Shown here: piece by piece, positions 7,534-15,287 of the stretch | How the letters are laid out: each line of letters starts with the position of its first letter | How positions within the stretch are numbered: the first letter of the stretch is position 1 | DNA from: a virus | Length of the DNA: 64,000 nucleotides | Strand: one strand, 5' to 3' | Virus record (IMG/VR): IMGVR_UViG_3300011390_000002 | Coordinates: 3,719 to 67,718 of that record | Notes under the pieces: generated by a model | Database searches by the model: none | What the model was told of the DNA's origin: nothing | Seen by the model: only the letters and a program-made list of their open reading frames with translations | Translations under genes and position numbers: made by a program

Positions 7534-8012
7534 GACATCCTCGAGCAGAGATCGTGAATGGAGAATACCCGGTAGCGCAGTTCCCGGGTGGGGGACAGCT
7601 ATGGAGCGACGAAAAATGTCCCGCGCCGCTCAACTCTTACATTTGCCTCCCAAACAGTCTTGACGCCACCAGTCATTACTGACTATTATTCTTCCCGTTG
7701 CACGGGCACTCCCCGCCCCAAGACTATGAGACCCCTGCCTGGGTTGTCGGGAAGCAAACAGGCTCGAAGTGATCCCGGCATTGAAGGGGGCCGGTTGTCC
7801 AATGAACAGATCGTTGGGCATGAACGTAGCGAGATAGGGGTGACGGTCGAAAGACTGGAGACGGTTTGGGGCTTCCGGGGTTAATAGTCCAGCTACTGAT
7901 GATCGATTGCTTCCATACATCTGCGCTGAGCTTCACCCCAACCCCTTCATTAGTCGAATTGTAGCTGTAGTAGGTATAAGGCGCGTGTGCGCGAGACCCA
8001 AGATCCAAACGC

Positions 8013-8191
8013 CCTAGGCGTAGCCCCAAACGGGAGCCGCGGCCGACACACCCACGGGATTTTCCCACGGGCCTGGCCTGTATATAGGGTTTTGTCCTTG
8101 GTGTAAGAGCCGTGGCCAGTGCCCTATAAGGTTGGCCGTCACCCGAGGGAAAACCCATCTTATAGGGCGGTGCCGAGGGGTTCGGCCTAGG
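8013..8191. repeat. non-coding element A: CCWWGG cluster plus AACGGGAG..GCCGACAC repeat
   Basis: CCWWGG at 8013, 8096, 8186; repeat unit at 8028-8060. Confidence 0.6.
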
Positions 8192-8292
8192 CCGGTGGAG
8201 AGGAGAAAGCCCGAGCCGATGCCCACCACAACGCCTTAGTCAAAACTGAATAATGTAATTGCTGCGACGTGCAGCGCTACCGGAACAGCATC

Positions 8293-8783: not shown

Positions 8784-8837
8784 GCTGATAAACAGTCAAA
8801 ACTGACGCACACATAACCACCACTGAAGAGAACGACC

Positions 8838-9044: not shown

Positions 9045-9319
9045 GGGTGTCGGAGAACGGGAGAGCCCGCCGACACCCCAGTGGGATTGACGCACGCAGC
9101 CTTGGCCAGAAGCCTAGGGCATTGCCCTCGGCAGAGCACCACGGAGGGCAGGGCAGTGGCCAAGGGGCTCGCCTAGGCGTCACCCAAGGACGACGGCTAC
9201 GGGCGAGCGCCTTGGGGTCCAAAACGGGAGCTGCCGCCGACACACTTAGGGAGTTTTGAGCACCACCCTCGGGAATCGACCTAGGCCGATCGCCTACTGA
9301 TCCGCTCGCCGCCCTAGGG
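9045..9319. repeat. non-coding element B: 8x CCWWGG, 2x AACGGGAG..GCCGACAC, hairpin
   Basis: CCWWGG at 9100, 9113, 9160, 9172, 9184, 9210, 9280, 9313; stem GGGTGTCGG/CCGACACCC at 9045-9078. Confidence 0.65.
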
Positions 9320-9435
9320 TGCTCGGAGATGAGGATCATCCTCAGCCTGCCTCGCGTCTAACGCTCCCCGTCGCGCCCGTCAAGCGGACCCGCGCCGATA
9401 CAACAAAAACACATGCAAAAAAAGAAAACGAAAAA

Positions 9436-9479
9436 ACGTGCAAAACGCGCTTGCACGTCTGAAAAAGACTCTTCATAAT
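9436..9479 (+). promoter_or_regulatory. sigma70 promoter with A-tract UP element and overlapping ACGTGCAA-N7-TTGCACGT operator
   Basis: TTGCAC 9451-9456, 17 bp, CATAAT 9474-9479; A-tracts upstream. Confidence 0.75.
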
Positions 9480-9555
9480 TCGTCTTACTCGCTGCAACGT
9501 TGCAACGAGACATACAGTCAAAACTGACTAACACACACTTAAAGAGAAAACGAAA

Positions 9556-10314
9556 ATGAACGCACAAGCTAACGCAACGAACGCAGTTAAGGCAACGAAG
9601 CGCGCAGCACGTAACAAGAAAGCAAGCGCGCCGGTTGACGGTCTGTCGCAAGTCGAAACGCAAGTCGTTGAAACGCTCGCAGTAGAGTCCACCGTCGAAG
9701 CTGCGACGGTCGCAAACGTCACGAGCGCAGAGAAAGCAGAAGCAGCGCAAAGCATGCTGCTTGCTGCGATTCAAACGCGCATCGATAACGCACCGTCTGA
9801 CAACTTCAAAAAGAACATGCTTGCCGAGAAAAACGCGCTCTCCGGTCGTAACGCGCTGATCGCACTTGAAAAGTGCATCGAGTTAGAAGTGGACTTTGTT
9901 GCGCTCGCCAAGAGCTTCGCAGTGGTCGACAACAAAGCGCACGACTATGTGGCAATCTACGCGGCACAGAAAGTCCGTAAAGCTGTGTTTGCTCTCGCGT
10001 GCGGTATGTCGTCCGTGTTTGACGGTTACACGCAAGCGATTCTCAAGAATCTCATTAAGCTTGAATCGCTCTCGAATCGCGGTTCGCAAATGTCGCTCTC
10101 TAACAAAGTCGTCTTTAGCGAAGATATGCAAACGCAAGCGGTGCGCAGCTTCAAAATGTGCGAGCCGTCTACCGCCAGCACGCAAGCGTCAAGCACGCGT
10201 CAAATGTTGCGTTTCTTGAATGTGTGCAATGTCGTGAAGTCGCGCAAAGATGACTCAATTACGCTCACCGACTCGAACGCAGCGAAAAAAGTCGTTTCGA
10301 TGTTTACTGCGTAA
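9556..10314 (+). CDS. putative early protein encoded by CC/GG-depleted DNA
   Basis: 252-aa ORF, AAAGAG RBS, strong promoter; Ala/Lys-rich N-terminus. Confidence 0.8.
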   Translation: MNAQANATNAVKATKRAARNKKASAPVDGLSQVETQVVETLAVESTVEAATVANVTSAEKAEAAQSMLLAAIQTRIDNAPSDNFKKNMLAEKNALSGRNALIALEKCIELEVDFVALAKSFAVVDNKAHDYVAIYAAQKVRKAVFALACGMSSVFDGYTQAILKNLIKLESLSNRGSQMSLSNKVVFSEDMQTQAVRSFKMCEPSTASTQASSTRQMLRFLNVCNVVKSRKDDSITLTDSNAAKKVVSMFTA

Positions 10315-10491
10315 CAGTCAGAATTGACGGTTAGAACGTTCTCTAACCGTCTCGCAGAGCTCAGACACACATTGCACGTCTGACGCTCACAAACCGCTCA
10401 CACACTCTCTAAACGGTTCTCAACATGTTCATTCTCGTTACGCGCACGTTTCACGGTCAGGGCTTCACGTTTCAGCGCACGGTTTATGCAT

Positions 10492-10536
10492 ACGTGCAAA
10501 AAGACATTGCACGTATTTTGTAAGGCGTGCTAGAGT
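10492..10536 (+). promoter_or_regulatory. sigma70 promoter with ACGTGCAA-N7-TTGCACGT operator
   Basis: TTGCAC 10507-10512, 18 bp, TGc-TAGAGT 10531-10536. Confidence 0.6.
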
Positions 10537-10577
10537 CTTAATAACAGTCACAATTGACTATCTCAGGAGGGTGCGCA

Positions 10578-10751
10578 ATGTCTTTCGGTCTGTTCTGTCT
10601 TCTCGCGATCCTCTCTACTGCGTTGGGTGTTGCTGTCGTCGCGTGCATTGTGGAGCGTAACAGCGCGCAGCAGCAGCGCAGGGATCGAGCACGACGCGCT
10701 GCACTCGGACGCGCGCAACGTCGGGCGATTTTCAGCGCATACGGTCGCTAG
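10578..10751 (+). CDS. membrane-anchored peptide with Arg-rich tail
   Basis: AGGAGG RBS; hydrophobic N-terminus. Confidence 0.65.
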   Translation: MSFGLFCLLAILSTALGVAVVACIVERNSAQQQRRDRARRAALGRAQRRAIFSAYGR

Positions 10752-10859
10752 GGGCGGGATCGCGAAAGTCGAAGTCCTAGACTTTTTGCGGTTCTCGATG
10801 GCCCTCCCTTCCTCGTCTTCCACCCCCAAACACCGTCCCTTATAGAGCCAGGCCGCCAG

Positions 10860-11234
10860 GTCCGCGCTTCCTTATACAGCCGCAGCCCCGCAGCACATTC
10901 ACGAAATGTCCCCGTCAGGTCGCCATGTTAAATTTGGGGTCTTACCCACGAGGCATATATGCTGGCTCGTCTGAACGCTTATTCCAAAGGCACCTCACGC
11001 GATGGGATGCAGACATGGCACTTCGATATCGACGTTCGCGATTCGGGCACGCCTCTGTTTGTTGAGACGATCTCGCTCGAGGCAGTCACCCTGATTGCCG
11101 ACGCAAACAAGCAGGGTCCGCTCTACCAACTCTGTCGAGCAATCCGCGACGCGGAAGAAGGGCGCTATGAGGCGCTTGTGGGGACCGAGTTCGGCGTCGA
11201 GTAGCGTCGAGTCCGCGCTTCCTTATACAGCCGC
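10860..11234 (+). repeat. 24-bp direct repeats flanking a single small ORF
   Basis: GTCCGCGCTTCCTTATACAGCCGC at 10860-10883 and 11211-11234. Confidence 0.8.
10959..11204 (+). CDS. hypothetical protein
   Basis: GAGG RBS, 81 aa. Confidence 0.65.
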   Translation: MLARLNAYSKGTSRDGMQTWHFDIDVRDSGTPLFVETISLEAVTLIADANKQGPLYQLCRAIRDAEEGRYEALVGTEFGVE

Positions 11235-11274
11235 GCTTCCTATACTTGGTTGTGATCCGACCTGGAGCGCTGAC

Positions 11275-12024
11275 ATGGCTGAGCCGCAAAACGACGAACG
11301 CAAGGCTGTAGAACCGACGTCGGCAGTTCCAAAGACACGCCGCTTCGCTTGGCTCACTTTTCATTTCTTCGTGGACGTCACGACGCTGCTCGCGTCGATC
11401 GCCACCGTGATCGCACTCATTTTCCTTATTCACGATCGCCGCGATCAAGCCAATATTGCCGCGTGGACCCTGTTGCAGACCTATCTGCAACAGGAGCATC
11501 GAGCGCAATTTAATCAAGGGCAGAGCTTCGCCCTCGAGACATTAGCGAGTCATGGAATAGATCTCCACGATATTGATGCGCATGGCATTGTGCTTGCTGA
11601 CACCAATTTGCGCGCAGTAGACGCTGAGGAAGCATCGTTCGAGCATGCGCAATTGGTGGGGGTCGACTTGTGGAGCGCAGCGCTAAATGGTTCCAATTTT
11701 AAAAAAAGCGATATGTATTCCTGTAATTGCCGTTACGCCTCATTTTCGAATGCAAATTTGACGGGCGCTTCATTCAGAGGAGGCGATTATCGGGATGCCG
11801 ATTTTGGATTTGCCGATGTATCAGATATGACATTGGCGGCAAACCAGGTGGACCAAGACGCATTCAGAAACTCATGCAACCGACCGGGACATCCGCCTCA
11901 CGCCTTTTCGAGCGTTCCTATTGACTCTCCAAAGCATCCTCAAAGCGACGCGTGTCTCAAGGTTTGGAGTAAATCGTGGGACGCATTGGCGAAGGCGCCG
12001 GACGCAAATGCGGGTGGGGAGTAA
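11275..12024 (+). CDS. membrane-anchored pentapeptide-repeat protein
   Basis: TM helix followed by A(D/N)L/ASF-type pentapeptide repeats. Confidence 0.75.
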   Translation: MAEPQNDERKAVEPTSAVPKTRRFAWLTFHFFVDVTTLLASIATVIALIFLIHDRRDQANIAAWTLLQTYLQQEHRAQFNQGQSFALETLASHGIDLHDIDAHGIVLADTNLRAVDAEEASFEHAQLVGVDLWSAALNGSNFKKSDMYSCNCRYASFSNANLTGASFRGGDYRDADFGFADVSDMTLAANQVDQDAFRNSCNRPGHPPHAFSSVPIDSPKHPQSDACLKVWSKSWDALAKAPDANAGGE

Positions 12025-12105
12025 CGGGGCAACCTTACGCAAGCCAACACTCAATGCTTACATTTGTCTATAATCTCGTCGAAATTTTTCGAGGGAGACC
12101 AGACA

Positions 12106-12558
12106 ATGATCAAGACAACTATCGCCGTCGCGCTCGCGGCGCTCGCACTGACAGGCTGCATGACCGCTCAGCAGGAAGCTGAGAACCGCGCGTCGTATGA
12201 GAGGCTCGAGAGCGTGCTCATGAAGGCCCAGGAGAACTCAACGGTCGATTGCACGGGTGCCGACGTGTGCGAAAAGATGTGGACGCTCACCAAGAACTAC
12301 GTGCAGCAGAATAGCGGCATGGCCGTGCGGATCTCCGACGACTCCCTCATCGACACCTTCGCCCCGGTGCAATATGGGATGGCGACCTTTCGCGCGACCC
12401 GGGAGCCGGCCGGCGAGAAGATGATCGTTCGCCTAGAGGGGAGGTGTCGAGGCATGTATAACCGCGACGGCACCGAGGGGCCGAATTACGCGGACTGCGC
12501 CCGCGCGATTGGGGTGCCGCAGAACAAATTCCTGCGATATCTTCACGATCACATGTAA
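12106..12558 (+). CDS. lipoprotein
   Basis: MIKTTIAVALAALALTGC lipobox; GGGAG RBS. Confidence 0.8.
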   Translation: MIKTTIAVALAALALTGCMTAQQEAENRASYERLESVLMKAQENSTVDCTGADVCEKMWTLTKNYVQQNSGMAVRISDDSLIDTFAPVQYGMATFRATREPAGEKMIVRLEGRCRGMYNRDGTEGPNYADCARAIGVPQNKFLRYLHDHM

Positions 12559-12559
12559 T

Positions 12560-12583
12560 AAAAAAGGCACCCGAGGGTGCCTT
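12560..12583. terminator. bidirectional intrinsic terminator
   Basis: AAGGCACC-cgag-GGTGCCTT between convergent genes. Confidence 0.75.
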
Positions 12584-12605
12584 AGTTGTTTCTGGTGGCT
12601 GTAGA

Positions 12606-12902
12606 TCACTTGAGGCTTTCGAGATACGCCTTCTGCTCAGGCGTGAGTGTGGCGAGCTTTTCAATGAGCGCGCTCTTGGTGGTGCGGGTGCTGGTCTTGG
12701 CCTCCCGGCGTGCGTTCAGGTCCGGCGTAAGCGCCTTCAGGTCGGCCTTGTCGATCAGCACTTCAAGCACCTGGCCCTGGCTGATTTTGAACTGCTTGGC
12801 GATCGTGCTCAGACGTGCTTGGGCAGCCTTGTCGAGAATCACGGTGTAGCGTTTGGTGGTCTCTGAACCTGTATGGGGTTGTGCTTGTGTCATGTCTCTC
12901 AT
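12606..12902 (-). CDS. ribbon-helix-helix (CopG/Arc-like) regulator
   Basis: RYTVILDKAAQARLSTIAKQFKISQGQVLEVLI beta-alpha-alpha pattern; palindrome at 12914-12936 upstream. Confidence 0.65.
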   Translation of the reverse strand: MRDMTQAQPHTGSETTKRYTVILDKAAQARLSTIAKQFKISQGQVLEVLIDKADLKALTPDLNARREAKTSTRTTKSALIEKLATLTPEQKAYLESLK

Positions 12903-13190
12903 GGAATCGGTTAACGTGTAAAAGTGTTTTGCACGTAAATTATAGTTAGGTGCTTGCTTATTACACGAAGAAAATGCCCGCGGTGCGCATTCTAAGAGGT
13001 CTGTTCAAACGCCGCTTCGACGCCATCCCGGGCAAACCGAAAAGGCAAGCGTTAGGCAATGGCGCTGTCGTCTGCACGACGTTGCAGCCATCGGCTTGCA
13101 ATGATATACAGTCGGGCGGAATACGCCGAATTTCGAGGTTGTCGGCGTGATTTCGAGGGTCAAAAAATCTACTAAAACGGGAAAAGCAGT

Positions 13191-15287
13191 ATGGCGAGCG
13201 CGACTGTCGAACAATTTGCTAGCGAACTAAAAATGACGCCGCAAGGCCTTTTGGATCGTCTGCATTTGGCAGGTGTGGTTAAAACATCCGCGAAAGAGCC
13301 CATTTTGGACGCCGACAAGCAGAAGTTGCTCGAATATTTCAGAAAAGAGCACATACCGGACGATCGCGAAAAAATTATACTCACAAGGCAGACACCGAAC
13401 GGCCGCGCTAGATCAACGAAAGTTGAAATACGCAAGAAAAGAGTTTTTGTGAGGACTGCCGAACTGATTGGGTCGATAGAGCAAAGAACGAAAGGTATCG
13501 ATGTAGCGGTAACGGACGTGGCGATAGCGAGTCTTAGTCCCGACGCCGGATTGACTTCAGGAAAAAAGATACGCTGGAGTAAGCTTGATTCAGTCGAAAT
13601 TTCGAACTTTAAGGCAATCGACCGACTGACTGTGCCTCTCGCTGAGGTTACCATTCTAGTAGGGCCAAATGGCTCAGGCAAATCGTCCGTCCTGCAAGCA
13701 ATCCACTGGGCTGCGCGGGCAGCTAGCTATATCCCCCCTGGAGTCCAAACTGAAGTCGTATCCTTCGAGCGACTGGACTACTCGCCGTCGAGTGAACCAC
13801 TGAAAACAGCGCACAAGAAGGAGCTTTCATCGGATCGAAATTCTGATCCGACAACTGTGATTTTTAATCATTTTTTTACAAGCGACGGATCTCCGTCCGT
13901 TGCAACCATAAAGATCTGGGCGGCACGAGTCTCCGCAGGCATATCGGTAAACATCGAAGGCGGTGCTGCTGTCACCCCCTTCAAACAACGAGAAGAACTA
14001 ATTACCGCCTACATACCAGGGCTGGCAGGACTGTCGGAGCAGGAGACACTTCTTGTCCAACCGTTGCTTCGTCGACAAGCGGCTGGTGGCAACGCGGGTG
14101 GAGTTCTGCGAAACATCTTGTTTAATATCGCTAGTCGCCAACCAGGCGAAGCAAATAATGACCCAGCGATCCAGCGGGTCAGGCGCTTGAACGAACTCGT
14201 TCAGATTATTCATCCCGGGGTATCGCTCGAGGTTAGCTTCAACGATCGAGAAGACATCAATATCCAGGCAGCGTTCGACGACAATTTGCTCTCCGGTGTC
14301 AAGCGGCCTTTGGAGACAGCAGCGACCGGCGTTCTGCAGGTTGTGCAAATATTTGCTTATTTGATTTTGTTTCGGCCCAAGTTGCTACTTGTTGACGAGC
14401 CTGACGCACACTTGCATCCCGACAAACAGGAACGTTTGATAGAAGCACTTGAAAAAGCCGCTAACGAGTTTGAAGTCCAGGTAATACTGACGACTCACAG
14501 CCCACACATAGTTAGGGCCGCCTCGCCTACTGCTAACCTCTTATGGGTCAAGCAAGGTCAGGTGTTTCAGCAACAGGACGACAATATTCGCGCGCTCTTA
14601 GGGTGGGGCGGTCTCGACAAGAAAATTCTCTTTTTTGTTGAAGATGAAAATGATCACGCGATCAGAGCAATATTGCGCCAGTGGCCCCATTTACACCGAC
14701 AGTTGGGGATTTCCCGATGCTTTGGCGTAGACAATCTTCCCGGAAATGCCTTTCTAAAAGGTCTTTTGTCCGGCGATTCGTTTGACGTGAAGGTCGTCAT
14801 TCACCGCGACCGGGATTTTATGACGTCGAAAGAGTGCAAAATGTGGGCTCAGCGCTATACCGAAGACGGTGTTGCTGTATGGATCACTGAACGTTCGGAT
14901 GCTGAAGCCTATTTTTGCGAGTCGGAATACTTGAGCTGCTTATACAACGTATCTACTGATATTGCTGGTGAATGGATACGCGAAGCCGCGCTCAAATGCA
15001 GGGAGGCAAAAAAAGTTTTTTTCGACAAACGTAAAGTGTTTATTCGCTTGCTCTACGAACACGGCGGCTCACCCGCGTCGAATGAACTTTGGACGGAAAG
15101 CCTTGAAAATCCCGCCGAAATTGTCCTCGGGAAAACGCTTCACAAAGCGCTAAAATGTGAGGTTAAGGCCGCTGGCCATGACGATAAGCTTCTGGACCGA
15201 TTTGCGATTCCGAAAGGGTATGAAGTTGCATCCGATCTCCGGAAGATTCTCGAAGGCCTCCTCGCTGACGGAAATGACACAAAGTAA
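13191..15287 (+). CDS. IF2 N-terminal domain fused to ABC/AAA_21 ATPase and TOPRIM nuclease (OLD/PARIS-like)
   Basis: residues 1-90 IF2-N-like; GPNGSGKS, LLLVDEPDAHLHP, TTHSP; C-terminal FVED..IHRDRD..DAEAYF; AT-richer DNA. Confidence 0.85.
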   Translation: MASATVEQFASELKMTPQGLLDRLHLAGVVKTSAKEPILDADKQKLLEYFRKEHIPDDREKIILTRQTPNGRARSTKVEIRKKRVFVRTAELIGSIEQRTKGIDVAVTDVAIASLSPDAGLTSGKKIRWSKLDSVEISNFKAIDRLTVPLAEVTILVGPNGSGKSSVLQAIHWAARAASYIPPGVQTEVVSFERLDYSPSSEPLKTAHKKELSSDRNSDPTTVIFNHFFTSDGSPSVATIKIWAARVSAGISVNIEGGAAVTPFKQREELITAYIPGLAGLSEQETLLVQPLLRRQAAGGNAGGVLRNILFNIASRQPGEANNDPAIQRVRRLNELVQIIHPGVSLEVSFNDREDINIQAAFDDNLLSGVKRPLETAATGVLQVVQIFAYLILFRPKLLLVDEPDAHLHPDKQERLIEALEKAANEFEVQVILTTHSPHIVRAASPTANLLWVKQGQVFQQQDDNIRALLGWGGLDKKILFFVEDENDHAIRAILRQWPHLHRQLGISRCFGVDNLPGNAFLKGLLSGDSFDVKVVIHRDRDFMTSKECKMWAQRYTEDGVAVWITERSDAEAYFCESEYLSCLYNVSTDIAGEWIREAALKCREAKKVFFDKRKVFIRLLYEHGGSPASNELWTESLENPAEIVLGKTLHKALKCEVKAAGHDDKLLDRFAIPKGYEVASDLRKILEGLLADGNDTK

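Follow-up and report, generated by a model that had tools for sequence, protein, structure and literature searches.

A small gene unit of an SSU5-like phage is nearly purged of GGA, GGC and GGG on both strands

The locus described here raises the question of why a short segment of a phage genome has lost nearly all of its CC and GG dinucleotides. The segment lies in a stretch of 64,000 nucleotides (the window), which corresponds to bases 3719-67718 of a 73.9-kb viral contig of the IMG/VR database (IMGVR_UViG_3300011390_000002), and it contains a gene for a protein of 252 amino acids (aa). An earlier note on this DNA pointed to an island depleted in CC and GG that holds a strong promoter with an UP element, a gene without Trp codons and small membrane peptides, and proposed that the island evades restriction or the recognition of a protospacer-adjacent motif (PAM), with the 252-aa protein as a candidate anti-defence factor. 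The analysis reported here identifies the island as a small gene unit that has been rewritten by natural selection, proteins included, and that is nearly purged of GGA, GGC and GGG on either strand.

An exact recount of positions 9541-10320 (780 nucleotides; A225 C200 G202 T153) agreed with the 13 GG and 13 CC given in the earlier note, and CCC, GGG, GGCC and CCWGG do not occur in this interval. The odds ratio is 0.25 for GG and for CC, compared with 0.81 and 0.72, respectively, for the whole window, and the ratios of CG and GC are elevated to about 1.7. When a frame of 400 nucleotides was moved along the sequence, all frames with a symmetrised ratio below 0.45 were confined to 9401-10600, and 9541-10320 is the most extreme CC/GG-poor interval in the 64 kb. 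Runs without any GGV or BCC (where V is A, C or G, and B is C, G or T) reach 286, 197, 152 and 135 nucleotides inside the island, and these are the four longest in the window; elsewhere the maximum is 91 nucleotides. The purge begins about 100 nucleotides 5' of the predicted start of transcription, its other end lies close to a C-rich tract (Table 1), and a CC burst comparable to this tract comes after the island in nearly all relatives. The 5' flank is CC/GG-rich, as had been claimed, with eight CCWWGG sites in 9100-9318. Between 10460 and 10799, which includes the stretch encoding a 57-aa peptide, CC is nearly gone (2 sites) and GG is back.

Neither amino acid usage nor codon usage accounts for the depletion, and the bias has been selected at the level of the DNA. 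The 252-aa gene was recoded with its protein kept, using uniform synonymous codons, the codon usage of the phage, or a shuffle of its own codons among synonymous positions, with 2,000 replicates each. The observed number of CC plus GG was 26, against 62.4, 85.4 and 51.0 expected in the three controls, respectively, and in none of them was any of the 2,000 replicates as low as 26. For 13 other genes of the window, the ratio of observed to expected CC plus GG under protein-keeping recoding was 0.70-1.07. The possibility, raised in the earlier note, that amino acid composition alone causes the depletion was thus dispelled.

The exact rule was derived from 18 purged homologues of the gene, which were pooled and compared with a shuffle of each gene's own synonymous codons. 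The banned words GGV and BCC (GGA, GGC and GGG plus TCC, GCC and CCC) were observed 70 times versus 380 expected (z -24), whereas GGT and ACC were not avoided (257 observed versus 250 expected, z +1), and CGGT/ACCG was enriched 1.5-fold. A single longer motif behind the residual CC and GG was rejected, as nothing beyond ACCG/CGGT was found. In the purged homologues, 68 of 74 Gly codons are GGT and Thr ACC is freely used, and GCC and TCC are almost missing. Codon junctions obey the rule too: G|GT makes up 65 of the 90 GGs at junctions, even though Val codons are outnumbered by those for Ala, Asp and Glu. The strand symmetry of the pooled homologues is exact, with 175 CC and 175 GG on the sense strand and 88 copies each of ACCG and CGGT. 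Summed over six loci, the 100 nucleotides 5' of the predicted transcription start contain 9 CC/GG versus 42.8 expected, and in the Burkholderia-type relatives the ribosome-binding site is without GG and reads GAGA. The ban therefore spans promoter region, leader, coding sequence and codon junctions, and the junction rule, the strand symmetry, the purged upstream DNA and the GG-free ribosome-binding site point to a constraint that acts on duplex DNA rather than on the messenger. Cytosine deamination was rejected as a mutational cause, since Ala is encoded chiefly by GCA and GCG, not GCT, and many transversions separate sister genes.

The exemption of ACC and GGT bears on the proposal that CC and GG were lost so that CRISPR-Cas of type I-F, with its CC PAM, or an NGG-type system finds no protospacer. 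Equal depletion of CC and GG on both strands is what a PAM read on either strand would cause, two lineages ban every CC and GG, and the lower GC content of the purged genes has a parallel in the lower CC and GC reported for Pseudomonas aeruginosa phages targeted by type I-F systems (PMC12174588). However, the type I-F PAM is NCC (NNCC in Table 1 of PMC12174588), with no preference at position -3, and fails to predict the sparing of ACC (z +1 for ACC/GGT, z -24 for BCC/GGV); most lineages tolerate ACC/GGT and enrich CGGT. The published genome-wide effect is tiny (8.27% versus 8.74%), whereas the depletion seen here is 4-fold to total. Furthermore, a protospacer elsewhere in the 119-kb genome would still be lethal, and other conserved phage genes are not depleted. 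Evasion of a PAM, as proposed in the earlier note, is thus considered improbable.

The strand symmetry is likewise relevant to a physical cause, namely, the removal of GG runs from both strands as a protection against RNA:DNA hybrids (R-loops) or pausing under heavy, convergent transcription. The step rGG/dCC is the most hybrid-favouring one, and rCG and rGU disfavour the hybrid, which would fit both the CGGT exemption and the enrichment of CG. On the minus strand, the dyad at the promoter-like site P1 (Table 1) reads as a hairpin followed by a T run, similar to a terminator, so antisense transcripts may cross the island, and a UvsW-like helicase gene is a conserved neighbour. Short clusters of G on the non-template strand are known to initiate R-loops (PMC6125637, citing Roy and Lieber 2009). 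Yet exact symmetry would demand equal transcription both ways, the DNA 5' of the predicted transcription start is purged as well, and capsid and portal genes, which are presumably highly expressed, are unpurged. Weak selection of this type is also unlikely to strip a protein of all Gly, Pro and Trp or to give zero words in 825-970 bp. Such a cause can be given only a small chance.

The bias is conserved in most homologues, a check suggested in the earlier note. The 252-aa protein has 77 relatives at E <0.001; of 27 homologous loci (designated by L numbers where they need to be told apart), 21 are purged and six are unpurged. Most purged loci carry 0-4 banned words versus 30-70 expected, and the purge is retained across phages of 45 to 62% GC. 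With a GC content of 52%, the 825 bp of locus L030 contain neither CC nor GG, and the protein encoded there is without Gly, Pro and Trp. At the level of the family, Pro, Gly and Trp make up 3% of the residues. In the protein tree, the unpurged loci require at least three changes of state, read as losses of the purge, and two sister pairs, L016/L022 and L025/L006, with 74-80% protein identity are in opposite states, their synonymous sites differing by both transitions and transversions. These changes of state, and the opposite states within sister pairs, indicate that the purge is maintained by selection and is quickly dropped.

An ordinary compositional origin, be it codon optimisation for expression or the relic of a transfer from a GG/CC-poor donor, can be weighed on this basis. 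The gene has 52% GC versus 60% in its flanks, and its codons GGT for Gly, CCG for Pro and CGY for Arg are typical of highly expressed enterobacterial genes. Ala is mostly GCA or GCG and Ser mostly TCG or AGC, which are not known as an expression-optimal set. Moreover, the ban extends to codon junctions and non-coding DNA, it is strand-symmetric, syntenic sister genes are in opposite states despite their similarity, and unrelated cargo genes are also subject to it. This explanation is largely refuted and highly improbable.

Evidence for an effect beyond the 252-aa gene comes from this cargo. At loci L013 and L014, the purge runs over 2.1 kb and covers an extra acidic orphan gene, a conserved micro-open reading frame (micro-ORF) and a 61-aa membrane peptide; the additional cargo and tail peptides carry 4-5 banned words versus 89-95 expected. 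The acidic proteins are encoded at 4692-5225 in L013 (177 aa, net charge -19) and at 4771-5163 in L014 (130 aa, net charge -11). They match no protein family and are candidate DNA mimics, and the L013 protein had no homologue among 5.8 billion proteins. Another example is that of Rhizobium phage RHph_N1_10 (L032), in which the 252-aa gene has an unpurged homologue, EVB77_010 (hhalign probability 84%). An island at 9470-10440 on the minus strand, 970 bp with one GG, no CC and 49% GC, sits 1.1 kb beyond EVB77_010 on the opposite strand and over two other genes. Since cargo is purged in L013 and L014, and since the island of RHph_N1_10 covers different genes, the purge is not tied to one protein family and is a property of the unit, not of a single gene. 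A total ban of every CC and GG, which can be regarded as a second dialect of the rule, was seen only in L030 and the Rhizobium phage.

The RHph_N1_10 island encodes proteins of 190 and 64 aa, both without Gly, Pro and Trp. On the plus strand, it is bordered by C-rich DNA at either end, even though the unit itself is encoded on the minus strand, for which reason a Rho-loading C-rich tail confined to the sense strand was rejected. The idea that the 252-aa product of the phage itself reads the words was weakened by the fact that the Rhizobium island does not contain the homologue. A mobile or invertible cassette was also rejected, no inverted repeats being found to flank the island. In SSU5 (L009), no homologue of the 252-aa gene was found; within the 43 kb examined, CC and GG are most depleted in a mild dip at 95.7-96.7 kb (ratio 0.42, with a 154-nucleotide gap) over SSU5_119/120, the position of which matches that of the islands of the relatives. 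DNA and protein searches of an isolate-phage collection gave no relative of the 252-aa gene.

The comparison of these loci is also informative about classical avoidance of restriction sites in a first-injected segment, as in T5-like phages, with the 252-aa protein as an anti-restriction product. There are precedents in the literature for the logic of this proposal, as local site avoidance decides the outcome of infection for the first-step-transfer region of T5/BF23 (PMC10644984) and the leading region of Autographiviridae (PMC12455610). GGCC is found 0 times versus 47.5 expected, and the CCGG ratio is 0.30. A conserved promoter-like site precedes the 252-aa gene, a repeat-rich non-coding block lies upstream, and the contigs of four relatives end 1.3-3.9 kb 5' of the gene. 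However, palindromes without CC or GG are over expectation (GCGC 4.8-fold, TGCA 4.0-fold, CGCG 3.0-fold, TCGA 2.5-fold), the missing words are only those containing CC or GG, and the ban concerns 3-nucleotide words at every position, not sites. Furthermore, the island occupies the middle of the 119-kb contig and has no fixed place in relatives of full length, the Rhizobium phage island is in the opposite orientation, and the protein resembles a basic winged-helix DNA binder (pI 9.2) and no DNA mimic. General avoidance of restriction sites did not survive these data and is an unlikely explanation.

The identical phage is also present on a 118,945-bp contig of the European Nucleotide Archive, where the 252-aa gene lies near 54.5 kb. 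Genes for portal, terminase, capsid, helicase and primase were found, and the portal shares 51-54% identity with those of Salmonella phage SSU5, Escherichia phage Cyrano, Klebsiella phage-plasmids and Rhizobium phages of 103-120 kb, on account of which the window phage is classed as a member of the SSU5-like group. With about 119 kb it is probably a phage-plasmid. For two relatives, the whole contig measures about 108-110 kb, and the IMG identifiers suggest isolate genomes; such contigs would fit a plasmid state. One relative locus sits on a contig of a Paraburkholderia metagenome-assembled genome. Scans of the 64-kb window with Rfam and for tRNAs gave no matches. The synteny of the 252-aa gene is conserved: on its 5' side is an array of small rightward genes followed by a long non-coding gap, and on its 3' side all relatives have a leftward UvsW-like helicase operon and two ParB_N genes. 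A conserved cluster of two ParB_N-domain proteins, an ABC-type ATPase and a thioredoxin is found 7-12 kb downstream in all relatives.

This cluster may be considered in connection with a modification-free zone, in which the phage would hypermodify GGV/BCC and a unit free of these words would stay usable by host RNA polymerase and regulators in either state of the DNA. A duplex mark would account for the strand symmetry, the rest of the genome retains the words, and the two dialects would match different enzyme specificities. On the other hand, three complete relatives yielded neither a C5 nor an N4/N6 methyltransferase, Pfam shows no transglycosylase or GNAT among the window genes tested, and the unpurged L006 and L008 also have the ParB/ABC/thioredoxin cluster. 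The lack of a conventional methyltransferase and the presence of the cluster in unpurged lineages weaken this explanation, which appears unlikely as well.

The explanation we favour is that the purge conceals the unit from a factor that reads short words on double-stranded DNA, and we put its probability at about one half. The island would form a self-contained transcription unit of an SSU5-like phage-plasmid, with an A-rich tract, a sigma-70-like promoter with its -35 hexamer inside a dyad operator, a structured leader and the putative winged-helix gene, followed by a micro-ORF, a second operator and promoter, and a small membrane peptide. Selection has removed GGV/BCC from the duplex DNA of this unit, sparing GGT/ACC, to the point that proteins have lost Gly, Pro and Trp and the ribosome-binding site its GG. 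The reader may be a nuclease that cuts frequently or nicks, a silencer that binds these words, or an enzyme that modifies DNA; any specific named candidate must be regarded as improbable at best. The unit would still be transcribable while the rest of the genome, normal in words, is bound, nicked or modified. Such a local escape would be sensible if the attack is reversible, as for binding, nicking or marking, and if the unit is needed first or regardless. We infer the existence of a reader, early expression of the unit, and regulation by its protein through the dyads.

Several points weigh against this explanation. We know of no defence system, PAM or restriction enzyme with GGV/BCC specificity that exempts GGT. 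The unpurged rest of the genome requires an additional assumption, namely, a reversible attack or a timing that shields the remaining DNA. The window gene is the leakiest of its clade, with 13 banned words versus 48 expected, compared with 1-3 of about 50 in its nearest relatives, and GG has returned in the tail, because of which the constraint may be relaxing in the window phage itself. Finally, the GC content of the purged genes is 6-25 points below that of the flanks in most loci, which a pure word ban would not require. A broader and more tentative conjecture is that Pseudomonadota or their phage-plasmids harbour an undescribed reader of 2-3-nucleotide words with at least two dialects (GG not before T; any GG), which SSU5-like phages might evade by recoding one regulatory unit, shedding the recoding fast where the factor is absent.

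As to the gene products, the 252-aa protein contains no Trp, as stated in the earlier note, along with 3 Pro and 5 Gly. By sequence, it had no Pfam, NCBIfam or PDB match and hit only PHROGs of unknown function. In its AlphaFold2 model (mean predicted local distance difference test score 82), a disordered tail (residues 1-50) precedes a helical domain and then a winged helix, and the TASTQASSTR motif opens the recognition helix. A structure search returned RosR, MarR, AntR, HlyU and TubR (ArsR-type proteins included), aligned over residues ~145-252 with Z scores of 7-8.5, values that are also frequent in the background; VIA-align superpositions on MarR/ArsR/TubR-type folds gave root-mean-square deviations of 1.7-3.0 A over 71-82 residues, and matches in the ESM Atlas agree with a winged helix. 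The model was without matches below E 0.001 in a Foldseek search of the PDB, and a viral fold library returned two uncharacterised proteins as its sole matches. The product thus looks like a winged-helix DNA-binding protein. A likeness to a FokI/AlwI-type recognition region in one Atlas match (TM 0.43) was too weak to use. The unit does not contain a partition NTPase gene (TubZ, ParM, ParA), its 3' genes being peptides and accessory genes, and a TubR/ParR-type assignment is hence not supported. A known anti-defence gene is likewise absent from the unit, and in the window only the 32-aa and 57-aa ORFs accompany the 252-aa gene. The role of anti-defence factor proposed for this protein thus found no support, the product being regulator-like and no recognisable anti-defence effector; the small membrane peptide expected in the region was found, in the form of the 57-aa ORF. 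The features of the unit are compiled in Table 1.

Table 1. Coordinates of the features of the purged unit and its borders
Feature	Position in window	Strand	Remarks
Strict GGV/BCC-poor island	9396..10459		13 banned words and 19 exempt GGT/ACC in 1064 nucleotides
A-rich tract, candidate UP element	9395..9435	+	27 A of 41; 5' of the -35 hexamer
Operator-like perfect dyad ACGTGCAA-N7-TTGCACGT	9436..9458		overlaps -35 of P1
Promoter-like site P1, TTGCAC-17 nucleotides-CATAAT	9451..9479	+	invariant in four relatives; 8/12 to consensus
Leader palindrome centred on AACGTT	9488..9509	+	compensatory change in L004
Palindrome CAGTCA-N3/4-TGAC(T)	about 9515..9530	+	one of six copies ahead of successive genes
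252-aa gene	9556..10314	+	disordered N-terminal tail, helical domain, C-terminal winged helix (predicted); invariant TASTQASSTR motif
Imperfect hairpin just 3' of the stop codon, without T run	10326..10351	+	read from sequence
32-aa micro-ORF	10425..10523	+	conserved in L014 (TRTxHGxGFTF...AYV)
Second dyad copy ACGTGCAA-N7-TTGCACGT	10492..10514		overlaps -35 of P3
Promoter-like site P3, TTGCAC-18 nucleotides-TAGAGT	10507..10536	+	read from sequence
57-aa peptide, one hydrophobic helix and basic tail	10578..10751	+	61-aa counterparts end the L013 and L014 islands
C-rich tract, right border	10795..10900	+	48 C of 106

In the control region, the strong UP-element promoter of the earlier note stood in part: the A-rich tract is present and P1 is invariant in four relatives, but P1 matches the consensus at 8/12 and was not called by a consensus scan. 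The dyad at P1 is kept in sequence among L002, L004 and L005 without compensatory changes, which favours a protein site rather than an RNA hairpin. A half-site of the dyad also occurs at 10372, within the island. The half-site TTGCACGT has 8 copies in the window versus 2.8 expected; one of them (12929-12936) is 27 nucleotides 5' of a 98-aa gene (12606-12902, minus strand) read from its sequence as a candidate ribbon-helix-helix gene, and another (1642-1649) lies near the start of an antitoxin-like gene at 1710. These copies suggest a small regulon. The CAGTCA-N3/4-TGAC(T) palindrome occurs at 7670-7685, 8237-8252, 8793-8808, 9515-9530, 10315-10328 and 10545-10560, each copy about 30-40 nucleotides before a start codon in the rightward gene array, and L013 and L014 have a different palindrome (core CACGTG) at corresponding places. 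These palindromes are possibly RNA-processing or regulator sites between cistrons.

Further observations concern the surroundings of the island. The non-coding block just upstream holds seven of the nine CCTAGG sites of the window, clustered within 8013-8191 and 9100-9318. Three copies of a 39-nucleotide unit (8025, 9052, 9219) are also present in this block. Clusters of CCWWGG recur 5' of the gene in distant relatives, unpurged ones included, as CCATGG in L030 and as CCTAGG in L007 and L008. On the 3' side, much of the block 10959-15287 is missing from L004 at the matching position; this relative is without counterparts of a pentapeptide-repeat protein and of a 698-aa AAA_15/AAA_21 ATPase and has kept the 150-aa and 97-aa genes. 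The DNA 3' of the island seems to be a hotspot for cargo genes. An exact 24-nucleotide direct repeat (10860-10883 and 11211-11234) flanks an 81-aa ORF (10959-11204) and looks like the scar of a gene insertion.

That phages avoid restriction sites and, to a weaker degree, PAMs was already known. A 3-nucleotide ban that costs three amino acids and the GG of the ribosome-binding site implies a strong, undescribed selective agent, which should be findable given that the rule is sharp, that a second dialect exists, and that close relatives switch between the two states. The putative winged-helix protein and the small cargo genes are candidate parts of a phage-plasmid module that acts first, in regulation or in counter-defence.

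A number of known systems share features with the island. As in CRISPR PAM depletion (PMC4246573, PMC12174588), CC and GG are low on both strands and GC is lower, but the published effects are genome-wide and below 10%, whereas the island is local, its depletion is 4-fold to total, and ACC/GGT is exempt. The pre-early DNA of T5-like phages and, in Autographiviridae, the leading region are also small parts of a genome that are free of defence sites, with sites elsewhere being harmless, and have host-type promoters. These regions avoid specific 4-8-bp or bipartite sites in a segment proven to enter first; the island differs in its ban of 3-nucleotide words, in the recoding of its proteins and in the size of the unit, which is only 1-2 kb. 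Enzymes that read a degenerate CC-containing 3-nucleotide word on duplex DNA do exist in chloroviruses, where Nt.CviPII is a natural frequent-cutting nickase with the site ^CCD and Nt.CviQII recognizes R^AG (PMC3017599), and such an enzyme would select a ban of this kind. The degenerate base of CCD is 3' of CC, whereas the word of the island is BCC/GGV. Nt.CviPII-type enzymes have been described in algal viruses but are not known in Pseudomonadota or the phages that infect them, and the present analysis detected no gene of this kind. Concerning the protein, residues 145-252 of the 252-aa model superpose on MarR, ArsR and TubR proteins, with the invariant motif starting the predicted recognition helix; it differs from them in an additional helical N-terminal domain and in having no family match by sequence. 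Lastly, loci of anti-CRISPR-associated (Aca) autorepressors and other autoregulated early operons reportedly combine inverted repeats over the promoter, a helix-turn-helix (HTH) protein encoded in the unit and variable small cargo genes. The unit differs in that its HTH gene comes first and is large (200-250 aa), with no sequence match to Aca or Acr families, but it resembles these loci in its perfect, operator-like dyad over each -35 hexamer, in the predicted HTH-type protein it encodes and in the variable small cargo alongside.

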